Positions 8,259 through 30,694 are shown, counted from the first letter of the stretch. The stretch: 64,000 nucleotides of DNA from an uncultured Verrucomicrobiota bacterium (GCA_964566945.1 CAZMKE010000003.1:209224-273223), one strand, 5' to 3'. A program made the numbers and translations. Notes: generated from the sequence alone by a model not told the origin.

Positions 8259-8329
8259 GACTTAAGAGTCATGGAGCATGCCGAACCATGCGTTTACAGT
8301 TCAAGTGTTTTTGGGGCACTGTCGCCCGC

Positions 8330-9889
8330 ATGAAATATGAATTGATCATGACCAGCCTGGCTTTTGTTCTCGTGGGAGGTTCTTTGGGCGCATTTTTCGC
8401 GGTTCGATGGTTCAAATCGAAACTGGAGTCCGTGAATGCCGAAAATCTCGCAGCGCAGACCGGACTGGCGCGCGCTGAAGCTCTCCAGGAACAGCGCGGA
8501 CAAGAAATCGCGCACCTGAATGCCTTGCTCACGGCGGCCAACACCGAGAAGGAGCGATTGCAAGGTGACCTTATCGAAGCGACTACCCGCGGCGCCGCCG
8601 TCGGCGAGAGGGCCAACCGGATTCCAGAACTCGAGAGGGAGATCGCCAAGCAAGAGCAACAACTGACGGCTGCGCGGGAAGAACTCAGTCAACAAAAAGA
8701 AGCCCTCGCCAGGCTCAACGCGCAATTTGAGGAGGAGCGGAAAGCCGCAGAGGAGAAACTCGCCCTCGTTACGCGGGCGAAGGAAGAGCTCGGCCTGCAG
8801 TTCAAAGCGCTGTCTGCTGAGGCTCTCCAGAGTAACAATCAATCCTTTCTTGATCTCGCGAAGGAGGCGTTGGGAAAGTTTCAGCAAAGCGCGCAATCGG
8901 ACCTCACCTCCCGGCAAAAGGCGATTGACGAGGTCGTCAAGCCGCTCAAGGAATCGCTGCAAAAGGTGGACGGCCAGATCGCCCTGATCGAAACAGAACG
9001 GACGCGCGCCTACGCCTCGCTGACTCAGCAGGTCGGTTCCATGGCGACGACCCAAAAGCAGCTTCAGACCGAGACAGCCAACCTTGTCCAGGCGCTGCGC
9101 TCGCCGCAGGTCCGCGGCCGCTGGGGCGAAATCCAGTTGAAGCGCGTGGTTGAAATCGCCGGCATGCTTGAGCACTGCGATTTCATCCAGCAGGAATCCG
9201 TCACCACCGATGAGGGCCGCTTGCGACCAGACCTCATTGTGAAATTGCCCGGCAGCAAGAACATCATCGTGGATGCGAAGTGCCCTCTTCAGGCCTACCT
9301 GGATGCTCTCGCGACGACCGACGAATCCGCCCGGCTCGCTCTCCTAAGAAAGCACGCGAAGCAGGTTTCCGAGCACATTTCCAAGCTCAGCACCAAGGCC
9401 TACTGGACGCAGTTCGACGCGGCTCCGGAGTTTGTATTCCTTTTCCTGCCCGGTGAGGCGTTCTTTAGCGCAGCGCTCGAGCAGGATCCGACACTGATCG
9501 AAACGGGGGCCGATAGCCGGGTGATTCTGGCCACGCCCACAACTTTGATCGCGCTTCTGCGGGCGGTGTCACATGGCTGGCGCCAGGAACGAATTGCCGA
9601 AAATGCCCAGGCTATCAGCAATCTCGGACGTGAATTGCACGACCGCCTCCGCGTCTTCGCGGAACACGTCGGGACGATCGGTGAGCGCCTGGGCGGTGCG
9701 GTGCAGGCTTATAACAAAGCCGCCGGATCGCTCGAAGGCCGGGTGCTGGTCACGGCGCGCAAGTTGAAAGAGATCGGCGGCACGGTCGATAAAGAGATTG
9801 AATTGGTGGACTGCATCGAAGTGCTGCCGCGCCCGCTCCAGCTCCCTCCGTTGCCCGCCGCTACCGAGAGTGCCGTCGGGGCCAGCTGA
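8330..9889 (+). CDS. rmuC: DNA recombination protein RmuC
   Basis: N-terminal TM helix, long coiled coil, and the RmuC core [29 protein letters not shown]...DAKCPLQAY...FLPGEAFF. The ORF opens at 8288; the ATG at 8330 (MKYELIM) is the preferred start. Confidence 0.9.
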
Positions 9890-9893
9890 TTCC

Positions 9894-9917
9894 CGGAAAC
9901 GATGCGTTTTCCGTTTG
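9894..9917 (+). terminator. Possible intrinsic terminator after rmuC
   Basis: Hairpin CGGAAA-N8-TTTCCG followed by TTTG. The stem is short and AT-rich, so support is weak. Confidence 0.3.
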
Positions 9918-10040
9918 CATCTTAGAACGACTCTTGTTTAATCCGCATGAATTCGCTGCGATCTGTTGCGAAGGCTAAAAGTCTTCCGGGAATCGCAGCA
10001 CAGGCAGGGACGGCAATGGCAGAGGACGGACGGGCACAAT

Positions 10041-13000
10041 ATGTCGAACGCGTTTTTTGAACGGCCTATACTTAACGCGCCGTACGACTATCCGCGTCGG
10101 CATTGGGAGTTGGACGAGCAGGGGCAGCCGACTCAGCAAATCGTCGAGCGCCGGCGTGGGGCGAAGTTTCTCACTCCCATTCCGCGCCCGCGGAAACGAA
10201 AGAGTTCGCAGCAGGAGGAGATTCTTTTCCGAGACGACGAAGGCATTTCTACCCAAGCCCAGCAATATGCCGATATCGCGCACATCAACGAGCTGCGCCA
10301 ATACGTAGACGCCTGGCGCGAACTGCCAAACCCTAACCAGTGGCAGGTCACTCCCGAAACCGCCCGGCTCCTCCAGCACTGGCGCACTCATAATTACACC
10401 GGTGTCCGCCCGTTCTTCTGCCAGGTGGAAGCGGTCGAGACCGCCATCTGGCTCACCGAGGTTGCTCCACAATCGCCGAAACTCGGGAAGCGGTTTCTCG
10501 AATACCTGGCGAACGCGAACAATGACGCGAACCCGCAGCTTTCCCGCCTGGCCTTGAAGCTCGCCACGGGCGCGGGCAAAACCACCGTCATGGCCATGCT
10601 CATTGCGTGGCAGACCATCAACGCCGTTCGCCGCCCCAACAGCAAGAACTTCACCCGCGGCTTCCTGATCGTTGCGCCTGGTCTGACCATCAAAGATCGC
10701 CTTCGCGTCCTGCAGCCGAACGATCCCGACAGCTATTACGCCGCGCGGGAACTCGTGCCGAGCGACCTGCGGGAGGAAATTCAGAAAGCGAAGATCATCA
10801 TTACCAATTATCATGCCTTCAAGCTCCGGGAACGCGTGGAACTTTCCGCGGGCGGGCGCGCTCTGCTCCGCGGCCGGACCGGCGGCGAGCTGAACACCAC
10901 CGAGACCGAAGGGCAGATGATCCAGCGCGTCATGCCCGACCTCATGGGCCTGAAGAACATCATGGTCCTGAATGACGAGGCCCACCACTGCTATCGCGAG
11001 AAGCCCGCTGGCGAGGAGGATGAGGAACTCAGGGGCGAGGATCGCAAAGAAGCCGAAAAGAATAACGAAGCGGCCCGCCTCTGGATCTCCGGCCTGGAAG
11101 CCGTCAACCGCAAGCTCGGGCTCAGCCGTGTCATCGACCTCTCCGCCACGCCCTTCTTCCTGCGCGGCTCCGGCTATGCCGAGGGCACCCTATTTCCCTG
11201 GACCATGAGCGACTTCTCGCTGATGGACGCCATTGAATGCGGCATCGTGAAGCTCCCGCGCGTCCCCGTCGCCGAGAACATTCCCGGCGACGAACTGCCC
11301 ATGTTCCGTAATCTCTGGGAAAACATCCGCAAGCAAATGCCCAAAAAGGGCCGCGGCAAAGCCGAGGAACTCGACCCGCTCACAATACCGCCGCGTTTGC
11401 AGACCGCGCTGCAAGCGCTCTACGGGCATTACGAGAAGACCTTCAAGCTCTGGGAGGCTGAAGGCCTCAAAGTCCCGCCTTGCTTCATCATCGTTTGCAA
11501 TAACACTTCCACCTCCAAGCTCGTCTACGATTATATTTCAGGCTTCCATCGCAAGAACGAGGACGGCACCAGCACGCTCGTCCCCGGTCGCTTGGCCCTC
11601 TTCCGCAACTACGATGAGCAGACCGGTAATCCTTTCCCGCGTCCGAACACTCTGCTGATCGACAGCGAGCAACTCGAGGCCGGCGACGCTCTCGACTCGA
11701 ATTTCCGCGAAATGGCCAGCGACGAGATCGACCGTTTCCGGCGCGAGATCACCGAACGCACCGGGGACCAACGCCGGGCTGAGAGCATCACCGACCAGGA
11801 ACTCCTCCGCGAAGTGATGAACACCGTAGGGAAGGTGGGACAGCTCGGCGCCGGAATTCGCTGCGTCGTCTCCGTATCCATGCTCACGGAAGGTTGGGAT
11901 GCGAACACCGTCACTCACGTCCTCGGCGTTCGCGCCTTCGGCACTCAACTCCTGTGCGAGCAGGTCATTGGGCGCGCGCTCCGCCGCCAGTCTTACGATC
12001 TCAACGAGGAAGGCCGTTTCAACGTCGAATACGCCGACATCTTCGGCATTCCGTTCGATTTCACCGCCAAGCCGGTCATAGCCCCGCCGCAACCGCCGCG
12101 CGAAACCATCCAGGTGAAAGCCATCCATCCCGAACGCGATCCTCTCGAAATCCGCTTCCCGCGCGTGGAAGGTTACCGCGTGGAATTGCCCGAAGAGCGA
12201 CTGACGGCGAAGTTCAACGAAGATTCGATCCTGGAACTCACGCCCGACCTTGTCGGCCCGTCAAAAACTCATAACCAAGGTATTATCGGCAAGGGGGAGG
12301 ATATGAACCTTGAGCACCTCGAGGATACCCGCCCCTCCACCCTCATTTTTCATGTCACCAAGCGCCTACTCGAAACGAAATGGCGCGATCCCGGCGAACC
12401 GCCCAAGCTTTACCTGTTTGGCCAGCTCAAGCGCATTGTGAAAGAGTGGCTCGACCACTGCCTTATCTGCCGCGGCGACACCTATCCGGCCTTGCTCATT
12501 TACCAGGAACTGTCGGACATGGCCTGCGAACGAATCACCGCCGGAATCACCCGCAAATTCGAAGGCGAACGCCCCATCAAAGCGCTCCTCGATCCCTATA
12601 ACCCTACCGGCTCCACCAGACACGTCCGTTTCAACACCTCCCGCGCGAGTCGTTGGGAGACCCGAGCCGACCGGTCTCACGTCAATTGGGTGGTGCTCGA
12701 TAGCGACTGGGAAGCCGAGTTCTGCCGCGTTGCCGAATCGCACCCCAAAGTTCGCGCCTACGTCAAGAATCACAACCTCGGGCTGGAGGTCCCATACCGC
12801 TACGGCTCCGAAACCCGCAAATATCTCCCCGACTTCATTGTGCTGGTCGACGACGGCCGTGGGGAGAACGACCTGCTCCACCTCATTGTCGAGATCAAAG
12901 GCTACCGCCGCGAAGACGCGAAAGAAAAAAAGGCGGCCATCGAGACCTACTGGATCCCCGGAGTGAACAACCTTAAGCAATATGGCCGCTGGGCGTTCGC

Positions 13001-13094
13001 GGAATTCCGGGACATCTACGAAATCGAATCCGATTTCAAAGCCAAGGTGGAAGCCCAATTCAACCAAATGATCGCGAAAACCATAGAGAAATAG
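10041..13094 (+). CDS. Type III-like restriction enzyme Res subunit (SF2 DEAH helicase with a C-terminal PD-ExK nuclease)
   Basis: Walker A LATGAGKTTVMAML, DEAH box VLNDEAHHCY, helicase motif VI-like region QVIGRALRR, and a C-terminal nuclease motif YLPDFIVLV...LIVEIKGYR. The N-terminus MSNAFFERPILNAPYDYP is typical of this Res family. The ORF opens at a TTG at 9966; the ATG at 10041 is preferred. Confidence 0.9.
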   Translation: MSNAFFERPILNAPYDYPRRHWELDEQGQPTQQIVERRRGAKFLTPIPRPRKRKSSQQEEILFRDDEGISTQAQQYADIAHINELRQYVDAWRELPNPNQWQVTPETARLLQHWRTHNYTGVRPFFCQVEAVETAIWLTEVAPQSPKLGKRFLEYLANANNDANPQLSRLALKLATGAGKTTVMAMLIAWQTINAVRRPNSKNFTRGFLIVAPGLTIKDRLRVLQPNDPDSYYAARELVPSDLREEIQKAKIIITNYHAFKLRERVELSAGGRALLRGRTGGELNTTETEGQMIQRVMPDLMGLKNIMVLNDEAHHCYREKPAGEEDEELRGEDRKEAEKNNEAARLWISGLEAVNRKLGLSRVIDLSATPFFLRGSGYAEGTLFPWTMSDFSLMDAIECGIVKLPRVPVAENIPGDELPMFRNLWENIRKQMPKKGRGKAEELDPLTIPPRLQTALQALYGHYEKTFKLWEAEGLKVPPCFIIVCNNTSTSKLVYDYISGFHRKNEDGTSTLVPGRLALFRNYDEQTGNPFPRPNTLLIDSEQLEAGDALDSNFREMASDEIDRFRREITERTGDQRRAESITDQELLREVMNTVGKVGQLGAGIRCVVSVSMLTEGWDANTVTHVLGVRAFGTQLLCEQVIGRALRRQSYDLNEEGRFNVEYADIFGIPFDFTAKPVIAPPQPPRETIQVKAIHPERDPLEIRFPRVEGYRVELPEERLTAKFNEDSILELTPDLVGPSKTHNQGIIGKGEDMNLEHLEDTRPSTLIFHVTKRLLETKWRDPGEPPKLYLFGQLKRIVKEWLDHCLICRGDTYPALLIYQELSDMACERITAGITRKFEGERPIKALLDPYNPTGSTRHVRFNTSRASRWETRADRSHVNWVVLDSDWEAEFCRVAESHPKVRAYVKNHNLGLEVPYRYGSETRKYLPDFIVLVDDGRGENDLLHLIVEIKGYRREDAKEKKAAIETYWIPGVNNLKQYGRWAFAEFRDIYEIESDFKAKVEAQFNQMIAKTIEK

Positions 13095-13273
13095 CGAATA
13101 GCGAATTGAGAATGATCAAAAACTTGGGATCACAACTCACGATGAGTTCGGGACGTGCTTGGGACGTGCAGCACCCGATCGCAAAAAGGCGTGCTGCTGC
13201 TCCTCTGAACCGTTCCGCGTTCCCTCCCTTGCCTAATTCCCCATTCGCCGTTCAAAATTCTTAATTCCCCAAG

Positions 13274-13795
13274 ATGCCTCTCCCCGTCAAAACGGACAAC
13301 ATCGCTTCCCTGGTCCTCCTGATCCGAAGCGAGAAGGTGCTGCTCAGCCAGGATCTGGCTGCTCTTTACGGCGTTTCGGTGAGCGCGCTCAACCAGGCCG
13401 TCAAACGGAACCGGGAGCGTTTTCCGGAGGATTTCCTCTTTCAGCTGACCCAGGAGGAGGCCGAGGCCGCCCGTCGTTCAAGATCACAGATTGTGACCTT
13501 GAAACGCGGTGAAAACATCAAGTATCTCCCCTACGCGTTCACGGAACAGGGCGTGGCGATGCTCTCCAGCGTCCTGCGTTCTCCGCGCGCCGTCGAAGTG
13601 AATATCGCCATCATGCGCACCTTCGTGCAGCTTCGCCGTCTCATGGATTCCAACCGCGACCTAGCCAAAAAGATCGAATCGTTGGAAACGAAATATGACG
13701 AGCAGTTCGCCGCCGTCTTCGAAGCGATCAAACTCCTGGTTTCCGAGGACGAGGCCCGCAAAGCCCAACCCGAACGCAGGATCGGCTTCAAATGA
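13274..13795 (+). CDS. ORF6N (KilA-N-related) DNA-binding domain protein
   Basis: IRSEKVLLSQDLAALYGVSVSALNQAVKRNRERFPEDFLFQLTQEE...LPYAFTEQGVAMLSSVLRS is the ORF6N signature, followed by a C-terminal coiled coil. Confidence 0.85.
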   Translation: MPLPVKTDNIASLVLLIRSEKVLLSQDLAALYGVSVSALNQAVKRNRERFPEDFLFQLTQEEAEAARRSRSQIVTLKRGENIKYLPYAFTEQGVAMLSSVLRSPRAVEVNIAIMRTFVQLRRLMDSNRDLAKKIESLETKYDEQFAAVFEAIKLLVSEDEARKAQPERRIGFK

Positions 13796-14098
13796 ATAGG
13801 GAATTGAGAATGACGAGTAGTGAATTAATAGGTCGGCGGCAACGCGCGTCCGACGGTCGACTCGATTTGCCGGAACGAACTTTCGCTTTCGGCTGCAGCG
13901 CCCTTAATTTGTGTCGCTTTCCCGACAAGTCCGCCGGCGGCCGGCCAGAGCCGCGCCGATGTTCTCAGCAAAATTTCGATCGCCCGCAAAGAAGCCCGCG
14001 AAACTCATTACTGGCTCCGCCTCCAAGCTAGTTCGGGACAAAGACCACCCAACTCACAATTCTTTATTCTTAATTCACTATTCCCAATTTTCCTCTAG
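13792..14098 (+). pseudogene. Decayed four-helix-bundle (23S rRNA intervening-sequence type) protein gene
   Basis: Frame 1 gives PERTFAFGCSALNLCRFPDKSAGG. A +1-shifted frame gives QSRADVLSKISIARKEARETHYWLRL, the hallmark C-terminal helix of this family. The central ~25 aa are missing and the two halves are out of frame. Confidence 0.6.
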
Positions 14099-14102
14099 CG
14101 CC

Positions 14103-17100
14103 ATGGCTAAAAAACGCACATCCTCGCAAAAGACCATCGCCACCCTCACCCACGACGAGGCCAAGCGAAAGAACATCCCCACCGCCGAGTACCAAAGCGT
14201 CATCCAAAAAGACCAGGAAGCCCCGAAAGAAGTGCGCTATCCCCACAACGCCACCGGCCTCGAGGAAGAAAAGAAAACGCGCAACCGCGACCTCGATCCG
14301 CAGCTCGTCTGGCGGGGCAAAGACGAAAAAGATGGGTCTGACCTCGTCGTCCACGCTCCACCCCTCTACATCCAGGAAAAGGTCCACCCCAAAGTCCTGA
14401 TCGATGATCTTCTCGCTCAAACCACCAGCCACAAGTCACAAGCTAACCACCAGTTCGACCTGTTCTCCGATTTCAACGGCATCCCCAAGGGTGCCGACAA
14501 AACTGAGTTCTACCAGCACGACCAAAACTGGAGCAACCGCATGATTCTCGGGGATTCGCTCCAGGTCATGGCCAGTCTGGCCGAACGCGAAGGCCTCCGC
14601 GGCAAAGTCCAGTGCATCTATTTCGACCCGCCTTACGGAATTAAATTCAATAGCAACTTTCAGTGGAGCACCAGCAGCCGTGACGTGAAAGATGGCAGCG
14701 CTGAACACATAACACGAGAGCCGGAACAAGTGAAGGCCTTTCGCGACACTTGGCGAGATGGAATTCACAGTTACCTAACTTATCTTCGTGATCGTCTAAC
14801 ATTGGGCCGGGATCTCTTAAGCGAGTCAGGCTCCATCTTCGTGCAAATTGGCGATGAAAATGTCCATCGGTTGAGATCCTTGTTAGATGAGGTGTTCGGG
14901 GAGGAGAACTTCATTACGGAGATCGTGGTGAAAAAGAAGGGAAATCAAAAATCATCGCTCATGGATCCAGTGAACGACTTCATTCTCTGGTACTCAAAGT
15001 CGAAACGCTCGGAGGGCCATGTAAAGTTTCATATGCTTTACGAGGAGAGGTTGATTGATGGCGAGACTGTCGACGAGTTTTCCCGAATCGAGCTCTCAAA
15101 CGGCCGGATAGTTAACCTGAAGCAAGTCACGGATGACAGAGGCGAAAAGCTAGATTTTCGCGCGTATCCCCGGCGAATTGAACAAGAATATCCCGATGGT
15201 CGGCTTTTTCGACCGTGGCCGATCACCAATGGAGGCGAACGTGCTCAGCAGATGGATCCGGTTTATTTGGAGGGAGAGCCGACCTTCCCGCCAAAGGGGC
15301 GGTGCTGGAGCCATACATCAAAGGCACCTGCCCACGGGATGAGCGGTATGATGCGCAATCTCGTCTCCGGAAGGTTGGTCCGTTCAAAAACGAGTTTGGA
15401 CTTTAAGCGGTATCTCGAAGATTTTCCATTTAAAAGCATTTCGAATTGGTGGGATGGATTCGGCGGTGCCTCGGAACAAATTTACGTGGTTCAAACAAAC
15501 GAACGCATTGTCGAGCGTTGTATTCTTATGGCCACCGATCCGGGCGATCTCGTGCTCGATCCAACCTGCGGGTCTGGAACAACCGCCTATGTAGCAGAAC
15601 AATGGGCCCGGCGTTGGATCACTATTGATACGTCGCGCGTCGCGCTAGCGCTTGCTAGGGCTCGGGTAATGGCTGCGCGTTACCCGTTCTACCTGCTAGC
15701 GGATTCGCGAGAAGGTCAAGCCAAAGAAGCTGAACTCTCCCGTCGGCCGCAGAGCTCTCAGCCCGTTCACAATAACATCCGACAGGGGTTTGTTAATCGG
15801 CGTTGCGCCTATATTACCTCGGGCAGCATTGCCAACAACGCCGAGATCGATGTCATCTGGGACAAGTGGCAGAAGACCCTCGAACCTTTGCGCGAGAAAC
15901 TCAACGCGGCTCTGAAAAGGAACTGGCAGGAATGGGAAATCCCGCGCGAACTCCCATCTGACAGCTGCGACGGATCCGTCCGACTTCTTCACGAGCAGTG
16001 GTGGACCGCCCGCATCGCGCGCCAAAAGGAAATGGATGCCTCGATCGCCGCCAAGGCGGAATTCGAATACCTCTACGACAAGCCGTACGAAGACAAAAAG
16101 AAGGTTCGCGTCGCCGGCCCCTTCACCGTGGAAAGCCTTTCGCCTCACCGCATCCTCGGCGTCGACGAAAACGACGAACTGATTGATCCCATGCGCGAGA
16201 AAAGCCCCGATTACGGCGCGAAGCAGACCTTCCCGCAAATGATCCTGGAGAACCTCAAAACCGCCGGCGTCCAACAAGCCCACAAAGCCGGCAAAATTAC
16301 GTTTACCTCGCTCACCCCCTGGGCCGGCGCGCTCATCTGCGGCGAGGGCCGCTACCTGGAAGGCGACACCGAAAAGCGCGCCGCGATCTTCATCGGCCCG
16401 GAATTCGGCACCGTCCAGCGCGCCGACCTTGTCGAAGCTGCGCGCGAAGCCGGCGACGCCCAGTTCGATGTGCTCATCGCTTGCGCCTTCAACTACGAGG
16501 CTCACACCACCGAATTCAACAAGCTGGGCCGTCTCCCCGTCCTCAAAGCCCGCATGAACGCCGACCTCCACATGTCCGAGGACTTAAAGAATACTGGCAA
16601 AGGCAACCTCTTCGTCATATTCGGCGAACCGGATGTCAAAGTTTTTGAAGGAGGCACTTCTGGTCTGAGTGAAGAAATGGTTCGGCGAGAAAAGCGAATT
16701 TTAGAATTTAGCAAAAAGGAACAGGAGCTAAAAGGGGCAACGGATCCAAAGGAAAAGGAGCGGATTATTGCGCAAATCCGTGAACGAGAGCGTTACAAGC
16801 TCTTTATTCCGCGGGCTCAAGCTCTCGAGAAAGATCGCTTCATTGTCGAGATCTGGGGTGTAGACGTTTTCGACCCAAGCACGGGCGAAGTCCGCAGCGA
16901 CGGCCCGGACGGCATCGCCTGTTGGTTCATCGACACCGACTACAACCAGGAAAGCTTCTTCGTCCGCCACGCCTACTTCCTGGGCGCCAACGACCCCTAT
17001 AGCGCACTGAAAACGACATTGAAAGCCGAAATCGACCCCGAAGCCTGGGCCACACTCCACAGCGACACCTCGCGCCCGTTCGAAAAACCAAAATCTGGCC

Positions 17101-17162
17101 GCATTGCAGTTAAAGTGATAAACCACCTTGGCGACGAGGTTATGAAGGTTTTCAAAGTCTAG
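14103..17162 (+). CDS. Site-specific DNA methyltransferase (Type III Mod-like, beta-class N6A/N4C)
   Basis: Motif IV CIYFDPPYGIKFNSNF lies upstream of motif I VLDPTCGSGTTAYVAEQ (beta permutation). The ATG at 14103 (MAKKRTSSQ) is preferred over the ORF-track start at 13911, which runs through the pseudogene. Confidence 0.9.
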   Translation: MAKKRTSSQKTIATLTHDEAKRKNIPTAEYQSVIQKDQEAPKEVRYPHNATGLEEEKKTRNRDLDPQLVWRGKDEKDGSDLVVHAPPLYIQEKVHPKVLIDDLLAQTTSHKSQANHQFDLFSDFNGIPKGADKTEFYQHDQNWSNRMILGDSLQVMASLAEREGLRGKVQCIYFDPPYGIKFNSNFQWSTSSRDVKDGSAEHITREPEQVKAFRDTWRDGIHSYLTYLRDRLTLGRDLLSESGSIFVQIGDENVHRLRSLLDEVFGEENFITEIVVKKKGNQKSSLMDPVNDFILWYSKSKRSEGHVKFHMLYEERLIDGETVDEFSRIELSNGRIVNLKQVTDDRGEKLDFRAYPRRIEQEYPDGRLFRPWPITNGGERAQQMDPVYLEGEPTFPPKGRCWSHTSKAPAHGMSGMMRNLVSGRLVRSKTSLDFKRYLEDFPFKSISNWWDGFGGASEQIYVVQTNERIVERCILMATDPGDLVLDPTCGSGTTAYVAEQWARRWITIDTSRVALALARARVMAARYPFYLLADSREGQAKEAELSRRPQSSQPVHNNIRQGFVNRRCAYITSGSIANNAEIDVIWDKWQKTLEPLREKLNAALKRNWQEWEIPRELPSDSCDGSVRLLHEQWWTARIARQKEMDASIAAKAEFEYLYDKPYEDKKKVRVAGPFTVESLSPHRILGVDENDELIDPMREKSPDYGAKQTFPQMILENLKTAGVQQAHKAGKITFTSLTPWAGALICGEGRYLEGDTEKRAAIFIGPEFGTVQRADLVEAAREAGDAQFDVLIACAFNYEAHTTEFNKLGRLPVLKARMNADLHMSEDLKNTGKGNLFVIFGEPDVKVFEGGTSGLSEEMVRREKRILEFSKKEQELKGATDPKEKERIIAQIRERERYKLFIPRAQALEKDRFIVEIWGVDVFDPSTGEVRSDGPDGIACWFIDTDYNQESFFVRHAYFLGANDPYSALKTTLKAEIDPEAWATLHSDTSRPFEKPKSGRIAVKVINHLGDEVMKVFKV

Positions 17163-17174
17163 AGTTCTACGGCA

Positions 17175-19916
17175 ATGAAGGAGAAGCCCAAATTTGTCTG
17201 CCAGCGCGCCGAATATCTGAACAAGGACGACTTTATCAAGTGCCTGCGCCGCTTGCGGCAGTCCGGCGGACCAAAGCAGAAAGCGGCCGAGAAGGTAACC
17301 CAGATAATCGGAAACGTGGAACTCGGTACACAGGAGCTGTTTAAGCTCACCAATCACGGTGAAACCCGAATAGAGCATTGCGTCAAATATGACCTTCCGG
17401 GCGGGTGCCGGCTTGTTACAGTTCAGAACGAAAACGTAGTCTGGTTTCTATTCGTCGGCGACCACGAAGAAGCGGATCGCTGGATCGAGTCTCACAAGGG
17501 TTTGCAGTTTGCAGCTTGCAAAGAAGACAAACGAATTCGACAGACTCGCGTCGGGGTGCCGCAGATATTGTCTCCCGAACTGCAGCAAGCAGGCGTAATT
17601 ACCGACGAAAATAAGCCCTTCCTCACGCGCTTTGCGTTTCCCGAGTTCGAGAGTCTAATTCCCCAGGCCAAACTTCGGCGAGATCTTTTGGCGATCAAGG
17701 AAGAAACCGACGCCGACACGATTTTGGAAACAGTGGAGTTAATTGGTGATAAACTCATTCGGGAGTTGGTCTTCGATTTACTTGCGGCGTCAAAGGACGG
17801 CCACTATGACGAAGCAGAAATGCGTCTCAAGCTTTATCGAGATGAAGCCGAAAACGTAATCGAAAACCCTGAATTACTAAATGTCGCTTTGGAGTCCGGC
17901 GAAAACAGCGATTCGATTCTTAGCTTTAACGACCTCTCTCCTAATGAACTTAGTCGACTGCTGGACAGTGCTCGATTTGAGGATTGGATGGTCTTCCTGC
18001 ATCCAGAACAGAGGCGAATTGTCGATGCTGATTTTGAAATGCCTGCGGTCTTGAAGGGGGTTTCGGGCAGTGGGAAGACAGTCGTCCTGATTCACCGGGC
18101 ACGGCGTTTGGCGGAGAAGTATCCAAGGGAAAACGTCGCGATTCTTACGCTCAATCGCACGCTCGCGAATCTGCTTAAAAATCTCGTTTCGAGGTTATGC
18201 AACGGAAAAGTCCCGGAAAATTTAATGGTTGACGCGTATTACGACTATTTTCAGAAGGTATTGCGGCATTTCGGGGCCGAGGAATACTTGCAGGCTTTCG
18301 TTAATCATCTCACGCCAAATCACCCGATGGGAGCGACTTTCAAGCAGGCGTTTAATTACCATAAGGATCTGGCCAATGAGTTCTCCCAGCGCAGTAAAGA
18401 GAGTTTGGAAGATACGTGGCGGGAATATTGGAAGGACGAATTGGCGAAGGATGAGGCGGCAGCCAATCAAAAACGGATGCTGATAGAGGCGATCCGAGGG
18501 GAGTTCGATGAGGAGAGCTACATTCGGGATGAATTTACGCTCGTGCGGAGCGCATTCCCGGCGGGCGAGCGCAGCAGTCAAAACGGTCCCAGTTACTATA
18601 ACTACGGACGCAAAGGGCGCTGCATCAATTTCCCGGAAAAGGCGAGGCGGAGCGTGATTCGGCTGCTGATGCGTTACGAAGAATACATGCTCGCGGGCGC
18701 CATGCTGGATGAGATGGGGTTAGCACAGGCGCTGTTCCCATCGATTAGGCGGTTTCCCGAATTGCCGCCGGAGCTGCGGCGCCGGTGTCTGCTGGTGGAT
18801 GAGTTCCAAGATTTCTCCACACTTGAACTGCGGCTTTTGAAGCAGATACCCACGTCTCAAGAGAATGGCCTGTTTCTTACGGGGGACACCGTGCAAAAGG
18901 TGCTGGTGAAGGACTTTAATCTGGGCAACGCCGCTCTTGACCGTCACTACGTCCGCACTCGCACGATCCGGAAGAATTATCGGAATAGCAGGCAGATTCT
19001 CCAAGCGGCGGATGCGTTAATTCAGAAATACGGTGAGATGGCGGCAAAAACGGACGATTCGATAGAGCGCCTTCAACCCGAGCTGGCCGTACGCGAAACG
19101 GCCCGGCCCGTGGCGCTAAAAGCAAACCACGCCATTGAGGCCGCCTGGCAGACGGCGTATAACTGGGTGGTGGAAGGCCAAAATCCTCCCTGGTCTGTTT
19201 GTCTGGTCGCAGCAAATGCGAATCTGATCCCGATCGATAGGATATTAGCGAAAAGGCATCCCAGTCTGCAAGCGAATGAACTTTCCGGAGATTATATCAA
19301 TCGTAAAGACACGATTAGTGTCGGCGCGTTGAGCGATGTGAAAGGACTGGAGTTCAGCCTGATCATCATCATCGGCTGCTCCACGGATATTTTACCGAGT
19401 CCGCAAATTCCGGTCGGCGAGCAGTGGCGCGATGCGATGCGTCTGTATGTCGCGATGACGCGCGGAAGAGACCAAGTCGTCATGACATATCAGGGCGAAC
19501 CTTCGGAATTCCTTACCACGATGAGGGATTTCCTGGTTTGGGATGAAGTGGAGGTCTCAGAGGTGACGCCACCGAATCCGGCGAAGCCCACCGCTCCCGC
19601 ACTGCCACCCCCTCGGATTACGCTTCCAAAGCCGCAAAAGGCTGTTCGGGGCACGACCTTCGAAGTTTCCGCGAGCATCGATGTGATCCTGAGAGGTTAC
19701 TTCGAACGCCGCATTTACCGGGGCAACTCCCGACTGATCGGCAAGATGTCTGGGGGGAAGTTTCGGGAAGCCTATTTGCGTTGGCGCCGGCCAGAAAATC
19801 TCAACGGCATCCGAGTATCTGAGCTGTTTGGGAATCGGGAATTCCGGCGTGACCTCGCTGAGGAAGTGGACCGAATAATCAAGCCGTTCGGCGCTCGGCT
19901 GAACTGGGACAAATGA
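17175..19916 (+). CDS. UvrD-like SF1 helicase with an N-terminal RelE/ParE-like domain and an uncharacterised C-terminal extension (paralog 1)
   Basis: FLHPEQR, then Walker A GVSGSGKTVV, LVDEFQDFS, NYRNSRQI, KGLEFSLIIIIG and LYVAMTRGRDQVV. N-terminal HGETRIEHCVKYDLPGGCRLVTVQNENVVWFLFVGDHEEADRW resembles the toxin-fold beta-sheet. Starts 12 nt after the mod stop. Confidence 0.8.
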   Translation: MKEKPKFVCQRAEYLNKDDFIKCLRRLRQSGGPKQKAAEKVTQIIGNVELGTQELFKLTNHGETRIEHCVKYDLPGGCRLVTVQNENVVWFLFVGDHEEADRWIESHKGLQFAACKEDKRIRQTRVGVPQILSPELQQAGVITDENKPFLTRFAFPEFESLIPQAKLRRDLLAIKEETDADTILETVELIGDKLIRELVFDLLAASKDGHYDEAEMRLKLYRDEAENVIENPELLNVALESGENSDSILSFNDLSPNELSRLLDSARFEDWMVFLHPEQRRIVDADFEMPAVLKGVSGSGKTVVLIHRARRLAEKYPRENVAILTLNRTLANLLKNLVSRLCNGKVPENLMVDAYYDYFQKVLRHFGAEEYLQAFVNHLTPNHPMGATFKQAFNYHKDLANEFSQRSKESLEDTWREYWKDELAKDEAAANQKRMLIEAIRGEFDEESYIRDEFTLVRSAFPAGERSSQNGPSYYNYGRKGRCINFPEKARRSVIRLLMRYEEYMLAGAMLDEMGLAQALFPSIRRFPELPPELRRRCLLVDEFQDFSTLELRLLKQIPTSQENGLFLTGDTVQKVLVKDFNLGNAALDRHYVRTRTIRKNYRNSRQILQAADALIQKYGEMAAKTDDSIERLQPELAVRETARPVALKANHAIEAAWQTAYNWVVEGQNPPWSVCLVAANANLIPIDRILAKRHPSLQANELSGDYINRKDTISVGALSDVKGLEFSLIIIIGCSTDILPSPQIPVGEQWRDAMRLYVAMTRGRDQVVMTYQGEPSEFLTTMRDFLVWDEVEVSEVTPPNPAKPTAPALPPPRITLPKPQKAVRGTTFEVSASIDVILRGYFERRIYRGNSRLIGKMSGGKFREAYLRWRRPENLNGIRVSELFGNREFRRDLAEEVDRIIKPFGARLNWDK

Positions 19917-20034
19917 ATTGTTTGGAGTTTAACACAGCAGCCTTGAATATGCCCGGTGCGGAAAGAGCTTTAGTCTGTGTTGAGGCGGACCGGATACATG
20001 GGCGGTTTGCCGGCCGCTGCTTGGGCCGTAACCC

Positions 20035-22155
20035 ATGACCTTCCTCATCGCTGACACCTTCACCGAGAGCCTCGCCCGCCTCACTGGCGATGAGCAGAAA
20101 GCCGTGAAGACCACCGCCTTCGACCTCCAGCTGAATCCTGCCAACCCTGGACACCAGTTCCACAAGGTCGAACGCGCGAAAGACCGGAACTTCTGGTCCG
20201 TGCGTGTCGGCCGCGACGTGCGCCTGATCGTTCATCGCACCGCAGGAAGTCTTCTGCTGTGCTACGCCGATCACCATGACAAAGCTTATGACTGGGCCGA
20301 GCGACGCAAGCTGGAAACGCACCCCACCACCGGTGCGGCGCAGTTCGTCGAGATCCGCGAGCGCGTCCAGGAAATCGTTGTTCCGGTTTACATTGAGGAG
20401 AAGAAGCCAGCGGGAACCAATCCTCAGAAGTCCGAGAGGCCTCTGATCTTCGCTGGGATTCCCGATGCTGAACTGCTGAGCTACGGCGTTCCCCCGGAAT
20501 GGCTGAGCGACGTGAAGGGAGCGGACGAAAATTCCATCCTGGCGCTTGCCGAGCGGCTGCCCGCGGAAGCTTCGGAAGCGCTCCTGGAACTCGCTACTGG
20601 CGGCAAACCGCGCGTGCAACAGGTTGCCGCGCCAGCAGCGAGTCCTTTCGAACATCCGGACGCGCAACGCCGTTTCCGCATCCTAACGAACGTCGAGGAA
20701 CTGGAACGCGCTCTCGAATTCCCCTGGGACAAATGGACCATTTTTCTGCATCCGGAACAGCGGCAGTGGGTCGAACGAACTTACAATGGACCCGCACGCG
20801 TCTCGGGCTCGGCCGGCACGGGGAAAACTATTGTCGCACTCCACCGCGCTGTCTTCCTGGCCCGAGCCAATCCAAACGCGCGAGTGCTGCTGACGACCTT
20901 CTCGCATATCCTCGCGAACGCCCTCCGGACCCGCTTGCGTCGGCTCATCAGCAACGAGCCGCAACTGGCCGAGCGCCTTGAGGTGCATTCCATGAACGCA
21001 ATCGGAGGCCGTCTTTATAAGAGCACGTTCGGGCAAGCCGCCAACCTGGCGCCGCGAGAGGTCATCTCGGATCTCATCAAAGCCGCAGCGAAAGAAGCCG
21101 GCGAACATAAGTTCACCCACACGTTTCTCCTTTCGGAATGGGAGCACATCGTGGATGCCTGGCAACTGAGCACGTGGGAAAGTTACCGGGACGTCCAGCG
21201 CCTGGGCCGGAAGACACGGCTGCGAGAACCGGATCGCGCGATCCTATGGTGCATCTTCGAGAGAGTCCGCACCGCGCTGGCAGCGCGGAAAATGGTGACA
21301 GTGGCCCAAATGTTTACCGATCTGGCGGCGCGCCTCGGGAAAGGTCCCCAGAAGCCATTTGACTTCGCCGTGATCGATGAAGCCCAGGACGTGAGCATCG
21401 GCAGCCTTCGATTTCTCGCCGCCCTGGCCAGCCGCCCTGACGCGTTGTTCTTTGCCGGGGATCTCGGCCAGCGGATCTTTCAGCAACCCTTCTCCTGGCT
21501 CGCGCTCGGGGTCGACATCCGGGGCCGCGCGCGCACCTTGCGCGTCAATTACCGCACGTCACACCAGATCCGCACCCAGGCCGACCGGCTGCTGGGCCCG
21601 GAAATATCCGACGTGGACGGAAACCCGGAGAAGCGCACCGATACCGTGTCCCTCTTCAACGGCCCTCCGCCGGAAATCGAAACTTTCAAATCTCCGGAAG
21701 ATGAAAATTCGGCCGTGAGCGCCTGGATTTCCGCCCGGATGCAAGAGGGCATAGCGGCTCACGAAATCGCGGTTTTCGTCCGCTCCGAAGCCGAACTGCC
21801 CCGGGCCCGCGCGGCCGCCGAGAAATCCCAGCTCGCATTCGCAGTTCTGGACGACAAAGTGGAAACCAAGACGGGCCAAATCTCCCTTGGGACGATGCAC
21901 CTGGCCAAAGGCCTCGAATTCCGAGCGGTTGCGGTGATGGGGTGTGATGACGAAATCATCCCCCTGCAAAGCCGCATCGAAACCGTGGGCGAGGAGGCCG
22001 ACCTGAAAGAAATCTACGACACGGAACGCCAGTTGCTCTACGTCGCGTGCACACGCGCCCGTGATCGGCTGCTCATTACGGCTGTCCAGCCGGCATCCGA
22101 ATTTCTGGATGACCTCGAACCGAGTGGTGAAACGTTGTCTCCCTCTGAAGGCTAA
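20035..22155 (+). CDS. UvrD-like SF1 helicase with an N-terminal RelE/ParE-like domain (paralog 2)
   Basis: FLHPEQR, then Walker A SGSAGTGKTIV, VIDEAQDVS, NYRTSHQIR, KGLEFRAVAVMG and LLYVACTRARDRLL. N-terminal FWSVRVGRDVRLIVHRTAGSLLLCYADHHDKAYDWAERR is a RelE/ParE-like C-terminal signature. Confidence 0.85.
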   Translation: MTFLIADTFTESLARLTGDEQKAVKTTAFDLQLNPANPGHQFHKVERAKDRNFWSVRVGRDVRLIVHRTAGSLLLCYADHHDKAYDWAERRKLETHPTTGAAQFVEIRERVQEIVVPVYIEEKKPAGTNPQKSERPLIFAGIPDAELLSYGVPPEWLSDVKGADENSILALAERLPAEASEALLELATGGKPRVQQVAAPAASPFEHPDAQRRFRILTNVEELERALEFPWDKWTIFLHPEQRQWVERTYNGPARVSGSAGTGKTIVALHRAVFLARANPNARVLLTTFSHILANALRTRLRRLISNEPQLAERLEVHSMNAIGGRLYKSTFGQAANLAPREVISDLIKAAAKEAGEHKFTHTFLLSEWEHIVDAWQLSTWESYRDVQRLGRKTRLREPDRAILWCIFERVRTALAARKMVTVAQMFTDLAARLGKGPQKPFDFAVIDEAQDVSIGSLRFLAALASRPDALFFAGDLGQRIFQQPFSWLALGVDIRGRARTLRVNYRTSHQIRTQADRLLGPEISDVDGNPEKRTDTVSLFNGPPPEIETFKSPEDENSAVSAWISARMQEGIAAHEIAVFVRSEAELPRARAAAEKSQLAFAVLDDKVETKTGQISLGTMHLAKGLEFRAVAVMGCDDEIIPLQSRIETVGEEADLKEIYDTERQLLYVACTRARDRLLITAVQPASEFLDDLEPSGETLSPSEG

Positions 22156-28712: not shown

Positions 28713-29717
28713 TCAACGACCGGTCCGCGCGCGCAGTGCGAGATAGGCCGATTGCGCCCACCGCTGGGCCGCCGCTTTTGCCCCCCGTTCCGCCTGCCGC
28801 CGCTTCTCCGCGCGATCGTCCTGATACTGAAGCAAATGAAAAGGGTCCTTGGAGTAGGTGCGAAACACGCGGCGCTCGAAGGCCTCTGGCAGGTCGAGGC
28901 CGAAGAAGGCCGCTATGGCCCGGATTCGCTTGGGCAGGAGTTCCTCATAGTCGATGATCTGGCAGCCGTCGTCGGCCGATTCGAGAGCCGCCTCGAGATG
29001 TCGTGACAGCAGCCGGGCGCAGTACTCCTCGTCGGGCATCTCCTCCGGCGGTTGGGGCGGATTGCGCCAGCCGTACAGATCCTCCACTTGCGCAGCACTC
29101 TTGTAAGCCAGCCAGCCCCGTTCGTTCAGGCTGGAGACCAGAACTTCGGCGGGCTCGCGTATCAGGACAACGCAGGGCGTTTCGGGCCAGCATTGGCGCA
29201 CAAAGCGCATCGCGAAAAGATTCAAGCTGCAAAACTTGATCACGAGCTTTTCCGGTTGGCCGGTGCGATAGCAGGCAAAGAGCCGGAAGAGCGCTTCGAA
29301 AAGCCTCCGTCGCGCATCGCCCCAGCGGGCGCGAAGGTAAGGAGACGAGGCCTCCGGGTACCAGCGAGCCAGACGCACAAAGGCTCCGGCCTCCGCAGCC
29401 ACCAGAGCGCCGGGAGCATTCTTGAGCGCGTTTGCGACGAGCGTGGAGCCACAATGAGAAACATGAAAGATGAAGCCGGCAGGCCGGACCGGGGGGAGCC
29501 GCTCGCTCCAGGCCAGCATGGCCTCGATGGAAGTATCCAGCTCCGCCGCGGCCGGGCTGGCGTTTCGGAGCTTCTCCACGGTCTGATGAAAAAAAGGCTC
29601 TGCCAGGGGCTCGGCCCCAAACTCCATCCAGCGCACCGCGCCGCCCGGGACCAAGGCTGGGTCGGGATCAAACTCAAAATCGAGTGGCAGCCAGCCGGCT
29701 GTGGGCAGTGTCCTCAT
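28713..29717 (-). CDS. Sulfotransferase-fold protein (divergent)
   Basis: FIFHVSHCGSTLVANAL (PSB-like loop) and VVLIREPAEVLVSS (3'-PB-like R-x-P-x-x-x-x-S). Its start overlaps the upstream stop by 4 nt (ATGA). Confidence 0.6.
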   Translation of the reverse strand: MRTLPTAGWLPLDFEFDPDPALVPGGAVRWMEFGAEPLAEPFFHQTVEKLRNASPAAAELDTSIEAMLAWSERLPPVRPAGFIFHVSHCGSTLVANALKNAPGALVAAEAGAFVRLARWYPEASSPYLRARWGDARRRLFEALFRLFACYRTGQPEKLVIKFCSLNLFAMRFVRQCWPETPCVVLIREPAEVLVSSLNERGWLAYKSAAQVEDLYGWRNPPQPPEEMPDEEYCARLLSRHLEAALESADDGCQIIDYEELLPKRIRAIAAFFGLDLPEAFERRVFRTYSKDPFHLLQYQDDRAEKRRQAERGAKAAAQRWAQSAYLALRARTGR

Positions 29718-30694
29718 GAATGAGCCTGCTCGGGCGCTTGAAAGGCAACGACCCGGTCCCGGGATAGGGCCGCCAGAAAGAGGGCCAGGTCTTCGTGCTC
29801 GAATTCGTTCTTGAACTGGCTGTAAAACTCCGCCATCGCCACCGGAGCCCGGTCCAGGATGTACTGCAGCAAAGGTGCGGCATCAGCCGGGAAAAGCAGC
29901 TCCTTGCCGCCTGCGGTTAAGTAAACGGTGTCCCGATCGCGCCGAAAGATTTTTGGAACGCGCGGCGTAGCCAGCACGATGGAATGATCCGGCGGCAGGT
30001 CTTCACTCCAGGCCCGGCCGGGCGGTGGATGGAGAGGGGCGAGTCGATTGAGGCGGCGCGCATGGGCTTCCAGCAGGCCTGGTGTCCGAAATGCGCCCCC
30101 AAACGCCCTGCGCAATTTCGCCAGGTAGGCGACTTGAGTGGAGAGGCTGGCAAAACGCGGAATATCCGTCTGAAAAACCTCGGAATCCTTCATCTTGTCT
30201 GCCAGCCAGAGCAGCAGGTCGGCTCCGGTCGGGTTCCGGATATGGAAAAACCAGCTCACGGTTGGCTGGTCCAAAGGATGAGCGGAGCGCCACCAGCTCC
30301 GAGGCAGATACAAAGTGCCTCCGGTTTCAAGCCGGGCCTCCCAACCGGGCGCCTCGGTGGCTTGCGCGTCACTGCCGTAAGTCCTCCAACTGGTTGGTCC
30401 GGCCACCTGGAGCACGATCAGGTCCTGCTCGGCCCGGTACGGCTCGCTGACATTCCAATCGCGCACCCGTTCCGGCCGCAGGGGCGCTTCGAGATGGCGT
30501 TCCAGGCTCCAGGCCAGTCCGAGGGCGGGAGAGCAGGTCGCGCATTCCCCACAGGAGCATTCCGCCGCCCGCGGACCCGACTCGAGGAAATCAAAACGAC
30601 CGGCCGTTCCCGGCGAGTGCAACGGCCCGGCGCCGTAATAGTCCCCCAAGAACTCCGGAACGGGGACCGGCTCGAAAATAGCGCCGAGATTCAT
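29714..30694 (-). CDS. JmjC/cupin-4 (RoxA/YcfD-like ribosomal-oxygenase fold) protein with substituted catalytic residues
   Basis: PYRAEQDLIVLQVAGPTSWRTY aligns by eye to the cupin-4 core PHxDxxDVFxxQxxGxKxW. GGTLYLPRSWWRSA aligns to GDxLYxPxGxxH. The C-terminal LFPADAAPLLQYILDRAPVAMAEF...LALFLAALS resembles the YcfD winged-helix domain. N-terminal Cys cluster CSCGECATC. Confidence 0.7.
   Translation of the reverse strand: MNLGAIFEPVPVPEFLGDYYGAGPLHSPGTAGRFDFLESGPRAAECSCGECATCSPALGLAWSLERHLEAPLRPERVRDWNVSEPYRAEQDLIVLQVAGPTSWRTYGSDAQATEAPGWEARLETGGTLYLPRSWWRSAHPLDQPTVSWFFHIRNPTGADLLLWLADKMKDSEVFQTDIPRFASLSTQVAYLAKLRRAFGGAFRTPGLLEAHARRLNRLAPLHPPPGRAWSEDLPPDHSIVLATPRVPKIFRRDRDTVYLTAGGKELLFPADAAPLLQYILDRAPVAMAEFYSQFKNEFEHEDLALFLAALSRDRVVAFQAPEQAHS

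Follow-up and report, generated by a model that had tools for sequence, protein, structure and literature searches.

The question raised by this locus is why two helicase genes of similar architecture lie one behind the other next to restriction-modification (R-M) genes, and what they do there. The locus is part of a stretch of 64,000 nucleotides (nt), called the window below, from an uncultured Verrucomicrobiota bacterium (GCA_964566945.1, CAZMKE010000003.1:209224-273223). The two genes, H1 and H2, encode UvrD-like superfamily 1 (SF1) helicases whose N-terminal domains are confidently modelled as the RelE/ParE toxin fold. An earlier note, made from the sequence alone, had placed them directly behind the R-M operon as a duplicated pair. 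The link to the R-M genes stood but had been understated: the region 9966-22155 is one same-strand defence operon on a horizontally mobile framework of three genes, namely the restriction gene Res, the methyltransferase gene Mod and H2 as its integral third member, and H1 is embedded inside this operon.

H2 and the Res-Mod framework

H2 was traced in a scan of one genome per species (GTDB representatives), which gave at least 590 matching stretches, and 80 of the loci were examined. Their helicases are 63-72% identical to H2 and come from more than 15 phyla, the hosts including Zixibacteria, Nitrospirota, Verrucomicrobiota, Acidobacteriota, Planctomycetota, Chloroflexota, Elusimicrobia, Bdellovibrionota, Armatimonadota, many Proteobacteria and others. 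The common layout is Res, Mod, zero to five variable genes that are mostly on the same strand, and then the helicase, with Res, Mod and the helicase all on the plus strand. A Mod homolog on the strand of the helicase was present in 44 of the 54 loci with at least 3.5 kb of upstream sequence (immediately upstream in 11, within four genes in 30 and elsewhere in 3), and Res in 30 of the 39 loci whose upstream sequence reached 8 kb or more. The three genes move as a set, since Res, Mod and H2 are similarly conserved across phyla (median identity to the window of 77, 62 and 68%, respectively), and H2 is a conserved, integral and co-transferred third gene of a horizontally spread triad.

The triad is also carried by plasmids. 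On a conjugative plasmid of P. avellanae (p1NCPPB4222, NZ_CP091148.1, 18967-27027) it is compact, with overlapping gene boundaries between Res, Mod and a '3'-5' exonuclease' gene of the H2 family (61% identity), and on a plasmid of R. leguminosarum it has small inserts and lies in an island that also holds Shedu, DarT and TIR genes. In the reverse check, an H2-family helicase was encoded by 10 of the 12 plasmids whose Res is at least 50% identical to that of the window; the two plasmids with a close Res and no helicase belong to Methylibium and look truncated. Complete genomes of E. coli gave no match and the phage collection held no H2 homolog.

A distant H2-like gene (36% identity) was observed on the Thermus thermophilus plasmid NZ_AP025610.1 (L161, 3465-10998) directly after a gene for an 1838-amino-acid (aa) DEAD/DEAH helicase. 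A giant N-6 methylase is encoded roughly 1.3 kb beyond that helicase, and the opposite flank of the H2-like gene holds a type III-A CRISPR-Cas locus. The arrangement may represent another methylase-helicase framework with the same terminal gene.

In the window, the operon and the parts of its two UvrD-like helicases are arranged as follows.

9966-13094, plus strand: Res, triad gene 1, a superfamily 2 (SF2) helicase with a C-terminal endonuclease domain (NCBIfam NF046055 'BPTD_3080 family restriction endonuclease', 1370.8 bits with a cut-off of 800; Pfam ResIII and RE_endonuc)
13274-13795, plus strand: ORF6N-domain gene between Res and Mod, in the second cargo slot (Pfam ORF6N, E 4e-30; PADLOC PDC-S05, E 1.5e-52)
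13911-17162, plus strand: Mod, triad gene 2, a large N6/N4 DNA methyltransferase (PADLOC MTase_III PDLC03632, 1331.9 bits; Pfam N6_N4_Mtase)
17175-19916, plus strand: H1, a 913-aa RelE-fold-UvrD-like helicase with an ATG start, filling the Mod-H2 cargo slot (open reading frame (ORF), Pfam, context)
17175-17579, plus strand: H1 N-terminal domain of predicted RelE/ParE fold, aa 1-135 (AlphaFold2 (AF2), Foldseek, residue conservation)
17985-19514, plus strand: H1 helicase core (SF1A), which runs from the putative Q-motif as far as SEFL and contains Walker A (18057-18080) and DEFQD (18798-18812) (Pfam, motifs)
19521-19916, plus strand: H1 C-terminal extension, aa 783-913, conserved in the subfamily (alignment)
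19917-20034, no strand: spacer of 118 nt between H1 and H2, its sequence not conserved among loci (locus comparison)
20035-22155, plus strand: H2, triad gene 3, a 706-aa RelE-fold-UvrD-like helicase with an ATG start (ORF, Pfam, context)
20035-20364, plus strand: H2 N-terminal domain, predicted to be RelE/YoeB-like, aa 1-110 (AF2, Foldseek, Pfam HigB-like_toxin, invariant columns)
20734-22107, plus strand: H2 helicase core (SF1A), which contains Walker A (20806-20829) and DEAQD (21376-21390) (Pfam, motifs)

The framework around H2 has the two components by which Type III R-M is recognised, an SF2 ATPase/endonuclease Res and an N6/N4 Mod, and departs from the two-gene Type III form (res and mod only) by its third conserved gene. 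The C-terminus of Mod (GRIAVKVINHLGDEVMKVFKV, then the stop) agrees with the Mod ends of other loci. At the other end, the GTG start listed at 13911 probably over-extends the ORF: the homologs and the PADLOC match begin near 14103, and translation probably starts at the Met close to that position (MAKKRTSSQKTIATLTHDEAKRKNIPTAEYQS...).

Cargo slots and the H1 family

Where Mod lies upstream of the helicase gene (51 loci), the two are separated by -4 to 41 nt in 11 cases; in the other 40 the distance is 0.56-7.2 kb and accommodates one to five genes. The insert of the window measures 2872 nt and holds H1 only, which starts 12 nt after the methyltransferase stop (Mod ends at 17162), as had been noted earlier. 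Cargo found at this place elsewhere comprises HamB of Hachiman (1400 bits), IetA and IetS (232 and 979 bits), GmrSD/HEC-06 (280 bits), the DRT protein RT_UG14 (703 bits), OLD/AriA/NsnB-like ABC ATPases, and CTD12 with DUF2326. An unannotated triple of about 255, 180 and 140 aa (clusters c4, c3 and c5), without a match in Pfam or PADLOC, occupies the slot in 6-9 loci (at about 7.6-10.0 kb in L061; also in L020, L024, L054, L081, L023, L031 and L065) and is a defence candidate by embedding. A 394-aa AAA_16/STAND-like ATPase (cluster c8), which had no PADLOC match, is encoded directly upstream of the H2-type helicase in five loci (L027, 332-1516; L010, L026, L056 and L079).

The 3' end of Mod and the 5' end of the helicase gene are conserved at the nucleotide level and the intervening sequence is not, a pattern that suggests exchange of cargo by recombination between conserved flanks. 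A conserved recombination site upstream of H2 was considered but rejected, because conservation is confined to the coding ends of the two genes, Mod and the helicase. The Res-Mod junction is a second cargo slot, since the gap is occupied in the window by the ORF6N/PDC-S05 defence candidate; an ORF6N gene adjoins an H1 homolog in Termitidicoccus mucosus too (L085). The triad junctions are thus places where different genomes keep different defence genes, and H1 is the Mod-H2 cargo here. Nested between Mod and H2, it lies as the embedded defence cassettes of Payne et al. 2024 (10.1101/2024.01.29.577857) are defined.

The contexts of the H1 family were taken from three exact-sequence look-ups and 71 metagenomic loci, and no conserved partner gene was found in them. 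H1 homologs lie between PglX (1538 bits) and PglZ (994 bits) of type I BREX with BrxC (1531 bits) and a GmrSD-like gene (L094 and L095), after DpdE/DrmD-like (701 bits) and DrmMI-like (246 bits) genes of a DISARM/Dpd-like cluster (L098 and L110), 14 nt past a canonical Type III Mod-Res pair (546 and 633 bits; L109), two genes downstream of Septu PtuA (616 bits; L114) and next to a Dnd cluster (L087). A 27.5%-identical homolog in Vibrio phage 10N.286.54.E5_PE002 (PQ189353.1, L160, 6088-8358) belongs to the accessory region of a lambdoid prophage, with the lysis module on one side and the replication module on the other. Its neighbours are Shedu SduA and a stand-alone RelE-like gene, and it bears the depositors' tag 'Gabija__GajB_3'. 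Since the family has no fixed partner, occurs in varied defence contexts and includes solitary cases, H1 is an autonomous, mobile, defence-associated single gene that was acquired separately here. The low-GC, island-borne helicase PA1372 of P. aeruginosa, which has a UvrD-like C-terminal domain and whose inactivation removes the fitness cost of pNUK73 (PMC4410645), could be a relative of solitary H1-type genes.

The block at 8.3-22.2 kb is bordered by ordinary chromosomal genes, which encode NfeD, LysR and a DUF7133/HEAT protein at one end and a DUF11/CARDB protein at the other, and the GC content is lower inside it. The GC fraction is 0.531 for H1, 0.546 for Mod and 0.612 for H2, compared with 0.600 for the whole window, so that H1 is indeed A/T-richer and H2 host-like, as first described. 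A promoter and terminator scan gave hits at chance level only, and no tRNA gene lies within the 64-kb window. An RmuC-family gene (8288-9889, plus strand) is situated 76 nt upstream of Res and matches the DRT-associated 'RTasRmuC' model of PADLOC (E 1.1e-55). Farther off, at 29714-32079 on the minus strand, a JmjC-like gene stands beside one whose product joins a 2OG-Fe(II) oxygenase to the N- and C-terminal domains of trigger factor. This combination is unusual and hints at a hydroxylase associated with the ribosome.

Helicase cores and N-terminal domains

H1 and H2 are intact UvrD-like SF1 helicases. The Pfam UvrD-helicase and UvrD_C models scored 61.2 and 34.7 bits in H1 and 61.8 and 72.2 bits in H2 (cut-offs 23 and 25.6), AAA_19 was above its gathering score in both, and the hidden Markov model (HMM) E-values of 1e-16 to 1e-20 on such long ORFs are far beyond chance. 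The motifs of H1 are WMVFLHPEQR (aa 271-280), GVSGSGKT (295-302), DEFQD (542-546), NYRNSRQI (601-608), KGLEF (723-727) and VAMTRGRD (759-766), and those of H2 are WTIFLHPEQR (234-243), GSAGTGKT (258-265), DEAQD (448-452), NYRTSHQI (505-512), KGLEF (625-629) and VACTRARD (670-677). Walker A, DExQD and the downstream motifs are invariant across the alignments of both families. The two UvrD-like ORFs of the earlier note (17175-19916 and 20035-22155) thus proved exact, with every motif quoted there present. The W.(V/I)FLHPEQR element had been called distinctive; it is present in both proteins, and since it is located just before Walker A, at the position of what we take to be the Q-motif of UvrD-family helicases, it is probably a family feature rather than a special signature. 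The C-terminal extension ascribed to H1 exists as well and, counted from SEFL (aa 777-780) at the end of the core, measures about 133 aa instead of about 150; neither H1 nor ten diverse members of its family gave a Pfam match there.

The N-terminal domains were modelled with AF2 from the family alignments, with pLDDT values of 82.5 for H1 aa 1-135 and 88 for H2 aa 1-110. In Foldseek searches of the PDB the top 50 structures for both models all belonged to the RelE/ParE superfamily (RelE, YoeB, YafQ, HigB, ParE and similar toxins, and the CARF-RelE protein Cami1). YafQ was best for H1 (E 5.9e-4; TM 0.73 to RelE 3bpq), and RelE of M. jannaschii (3bpq) for H2 (E 1.2e-4, TM 0.78, rmsd 2.3 Å). Both domains are therefore modelled with confidence as the RelE/ParE (BECR) fold. 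Their profiles align with each other in hhalign at 95.7% probability (E 1e-8, 105 columns, including a common beta-hairpin after the RelE core), and by this sequence comparison the two domains are homologous. HigB-like_toxin gave sub-threshold matches in 15 of 20 H2-family N-domains (best E 1.1e-4); the H1 domain had no Pfam match, and its sequence link to RelE runs only through the hhalign match to the H2 domain. Many homologs are annotated by JGI as 'mRNA-degrading endonuclease RelE', and the NCBI name for H2-family proteins is '3'-5' exonuclease'. The fold of the N-termini had been set in advance as a test of the earlier note, and both domains came out as it had predicted, with the JGI labels and the HigB-like matches in agreement. 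Among the best 150 matches of H2 aa 1-110 in a representative library there were only members of the same family and fragments, with no alternative architectures.

The conservation of single residues is suggestive of an active site. In the H1 family, T59, E63, R65, K71, R79, G95, H97 and W103 are near-invariant, and T59, E63, R65, K71, R79 and H97 are retained in 92-97 of the 99 members without a NERD domain. A further 17 relatives carry an additional N-terminal NERD nuclease (Pfam PF08378; P0146, P0157-P0161, P0163, P0165, P0167, P0170, P0174, P0176-P0179, P0183 and P0184). In these T59, E63, K71 and H97 are retained in none of the 17, R65 in 9 and R79 in 8, and the fold residues Y72, G95 and W103 persist in 15-17. 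Such decay of the polar residues with the gain of NERD is suggestive of effector replacement, as expected of an active site made dispensable by another nuclease, and it therefore supports a functional site in the RelE-like domain. The invariant residues of the H2 family are D50, S55, R57, R63, H67, H81, Y85 and W87. In provisional alignments with weak scores, hhalign placed H2 FWSVR...VRLIV...HH (F53-R57, R63 and H81) on YoeB FWSRR...HRLVY...YHY (R59, R65 and H83), and H1 K71, R79, H97 and W103 on RelE K52, R61, R81 and Y87.

Function, alternatives and known relatives

From their genomic context, H1 and H2 are likely to be anti-phage genes; the anti-phage setting first proposed for them is supported by the defence genes that fill the slots and by the other contexts. 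The best explanation, to which a little more than an even chance is given, is that both couple a helicase sensor to a RelE RNase effector and act in restriction-linked abortive infection on a defence-operon framework. The RNase activity, its ribosome dependence and the trigger are what we infer for both proteins. The helicase module would serve as sensor and motor and would load on DNA ends or single-stranded DNA arising from restriction or from foreign or phage replication. Its ATP-driven engagement would release the N-terminal RelE-like domain as an RNase, whose target, by analogy with RelE, YoeB and Cami1, would most likely be ribosome-bound mRNA, so that translation would stop and the infection would abort. 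H2 would stand behind the Type III enzyme as an integral back-up, comparable to PrrC in Type I loci, and H1 would be an autonomous single-gene version of the same device. The high conservation of H2 across phyla would fit a universally conserved target such as the ribosome, which is a point of plausibility only. GajB of Gabija, the analogy for the proposed sensing step, is reported to sense DNA termini made by GajA.

Several observations weigh against this explanation or against the gene associations on which it builds. The neighbour analysis used home-made ORF calling and clustering with the window proteins, Mod was not seen in about 19% of the H2 loci with enough upstream sequence, and several H1 homologs stand alone among metabolic or housekeeping genes. 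The Foldseek E-values are modest (1e-4 to 1e-2), the matches of the H2 domain to HigB-like_toxin (16.9 bits against 27) and ParE_like (15.4 against 24.4) are below the gathering scores, and the N-domain profiles of H1 and H2 found no meaningful match among all PDB sequences. The RelE/ParE fold also includes gyrase poisons (ParE) that are not nucleases. The residue mapping to YoeB and RelE is provisional and suggestive only, with weak pairwise HH scores. An adjacent small antitoxin ORF is absent beside H1, which has Mod 12 nt upstream, and beside H2, which is preceded by the unconserved 118-nt spacer, and because there is no antitoxin-like gene the control of a constitutively fused toxin is left unexplained.

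In the main alternative, which we regard as unlikely, the RelE fold would be a non-catalytic adaptor for nucleic acids or proteins and the helicase would assist restriction itself, with no abortive infection. It could process or unwind Res-made ends for host nucleases, strip Res-Mod from DNA and recycle it, or aid target discrimination. The co-inheritance of H2 with Res and Mod is as tight as that of a subunit, UvrD-family enzymes are end- or nick-loading motors and protein-displacing translocases, and the NCBI family name and the RelE-family matches below curated thresholds are in line with such a role, as is the RelE-like domain of uncertain activity in another restriction-linked helicase, CnuH. 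However, the polar residues provisionally placed on the RelE/YoeB catalytic positions are invariant in both families, and an enzymatic effector accounts better than a scaffold for the decay of those of the H1 family once NERD is added, with the fold kept. The H1 family is also found in many unrelated contexts and alone, and therefore is not a dedicated subunit of one R-M enzyme.

An improbable alternative is that H1 and H2 are selfish addiction elements, in which a RelE toxin is restrained in cis by the helicase or the R-M proteins and the island is stabilised by post-segregational killing. A toxin fold is present, the distribution across phyla is very broad and recent, relatives are carried on plasmids and beside insertion sequence (IS) elements, and R-M systems themselves act as addiction modules. 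Against this, no separate labile antitoxin is found and an ATP-driven motor of 600-800 aa would be a costly one, the neighbours and slot contents are defence systems, and relatives of H1 occupy the site at which genes are classically embedded in BREX. A role in addiction would, however, be compatible with one in defence.

The earlier proposal that H1 and H2 arose by tandem duplication and together make up an anti-phage module of two helicases, which lies behind the R-M genes and is distinct from them, now appears very improbable. In its favour, H1 and H2 are same-strand neighbours with a common three-part architecture and common helicase motifs, their N-domains are homologous, and UvrD-family helicases are often activated by dimerisation. 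However, BLASTP aligned H1 and H2 at 27% identity (E 6e-31) over the helicase core only, the N-termini not being alignable by this method, and the two families are unequal in size and in degree of conservation and differ in GC as well. The H2 search returned more than 8000 matches at about 70% identity (the top 120 at 69-76%), with a mean column identity of 77% in an alignment of 54 sequences, and the H1 search returned 198 divergent matches, mostly at 30-67% identity, with one partial match at 87%. The context survey does not pair them either: an H1-like gene was found in the Mod-helicase slot in none of 51 other Mod-upstream loci of the H2 family, where the slot was empty or held unrelated cargo; among the 84 H2-family loci clustered, no other Mod-upstream locus had a second helicase-cluster gene; and none of about 50 H1-family loci had an H2-type triad. 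In one H1-family locus (L113) a second helicase-cluster gene adjoins the H1 homolog. Since the H1 family is solitary or mobile elsewhere, the slots swap cargo and the two families are different, the H1-H2 adjacency is a coincidence of cargo and frame and not a duplication.

That H1 and H2 are ordinary repair or replication helicases lying near R-M genes by chance is scarcely credible: the Pfam UvrD-helicase and UvrD_C domains and weak NCBIfam matches to UvrD, Rep, PcrA, helicase IV and HelD are all that speaks for it, and orthology to these housekeeping proteins was rejected because the best equivalog scores were 60.6 and 76.6 bits with cut-offs of 419-1168, quite apart from the patchy horizontal distribution across phyla with a fixed R-M partner, the toxin-fold N-domain and the lower GC of a block set between ordinary chromosomal genes.

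The closest architectural precedent is CnuH of CoCoNuT Type II/III-A, a McrBC-type (Type IV) restriction system (Bell et al., eLife 2024, PMC11090510). CnuH is likewise a restriction-encoded SF1 helicase with a RelE/colicin-D-fold 'RNase toxin-like' (RTL) domain N-terminal to its core and a predicted coupling of motor and RNA targeting, but it is UPF1-like (SF1B), has SmpB-like and OB domains and is partnered by the McrBC GTPase/nuclease and HEPN effectors (PMC11090510). H1 and H2 are SF1A, their RelE domain is at the extreme N-terminus, and the partner of H2 is a methylation-dependent, Type III-like R-M system. Identity with CnuH, whose operon has McrB/McrC homologs and a CnuE effector, was rejected, the best Pfam matches being of UvrD type with AAA_11/AAA_12 only marginal, and no McrBC-type or HEPN gene being present in the operon.

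The best matches of H1 and H2 in PADLOC-DB v2 are to generic helicase cores at no more than 88 bits (GajB, the NERD+UvrD candidate C3a187 and RTasHel). GajB likewise has a UvrD-family SF1A core acting as a defence sensor and accounts for most PADLOC matches of both proteins, including the top one of H1 (68-71 bits), but it lacks a RelE-fold N-domain and the matches span only parts of the helicase core. Gabija as such was rejected, since the genes of 8288-22155 (RmuC, Res, ORF6N, Mod, H1 and H2) include no GajA OLD/TOPRIM gene. C3a187 is the best match of H2 (87.5 bits) and the second of H1 (65 bits), again over the core only, and unlike this candidate H1 and H2 have no NERD domain. The statement that the pair is not Gabija, DISARM or BREX was upheld for this locus, and PADLOC-DB v2 holds no model specific to H1 or H2.

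In the concept of PrrC/HEPN-R-M systems an RNase effector is likewise placed inside an R-M operon and proposed as a fail-safe for overwhelmed restriction (Anantharaman et al. 2013, PMC3710099), although PrrC combines an ABC ATPase with an anticodon nuclease in a Type I setting, unlike the UvrD-like motor, RelE fold and Type III-like setting of H2. Cami1 and HEC-07 are defence effectors in which a RelE-fold domain is likewise fused to a sensor, and neither has a helicase: in Cami1 the sensor is a CARF domain that reads cyclic oligoadenylate, and HEC-07 has AdoMetDC-like and thioredoxin-like domains with the RelE-like part at the C-terminus. HEC-07 is one of nine embedded-gene candidates chosen for phage-defence testing in a preprint on defence genes nested in Hma, BREX, DISARM and Type I R-M, where Type III comes up a single time (10.1101/2024.01.29.577857). 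Those genes, too, are variable same-strand cassettes between the core genes of methylation systems, and relatives of H1 lie in the BREX pglX-pglZ slot; the Type III-like triad, however, differs from all four hosts. Hma was rejected as the framework, being defined by the m5C methylase HmaB together with the helicase HmaA and the ATPase HmaC, whereas Mod is of N6/N4 type, and Hma models were absent from the PADLOC matches listed for Res and Mod and from the 25 best listed for H1 and H2.

No description of H1/H2-type proteins was found in the open-access literature searched. Helicases go unmentioned in a dedicated survey of multi-domain RelE/ParE toxins and in a 2026 preprint on BECR classification, and for the MANTIS preprint, which was considered as a possible prior description, term counts gave 0 occurrences of 'UvrD'. 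The locus varies known kinds, namely R-M-linked RNase back-ups, RelE effectors and embedded defence genes. A bolder proposal, possible but held only tentatively, is that the triad is a distinct, unnamed class of restriction system in which the motor reads ends or stalled complexes made by the Type III enzyme and licenses the fused ribosome-targeting RelE RNase, restriction thereby being hard-wired to abortive infection; the two junctions would be a pan-phylum hotspot that shuttles defence systems, and RelE-UvrD proteins, solitary H1 included, would be a general 'methylation-system companion' effector.

The anatomy and the genomic logic of the locus, that is, the fusions, the place of H2 in the triad, H1 as cargo and the defence-filled slots, are well supported. 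The Res-Mod and Mod-helicase junctions provide a new 'guilt-by-embedding' hotspot with recurrent unannotated cassettes that are defence candidates, and the conservation of the three triad proteins across phyla (62-77%) makes them attractive for biochemistry. If the coupling holds, a very widespread fused sensor-effector design, in which a UvrD-type helicase drives a RelE-type RNase, would join the defence repertoire, and a large family of Type III-like R-M systems would be three-component systems with a built-in abortive back-up.

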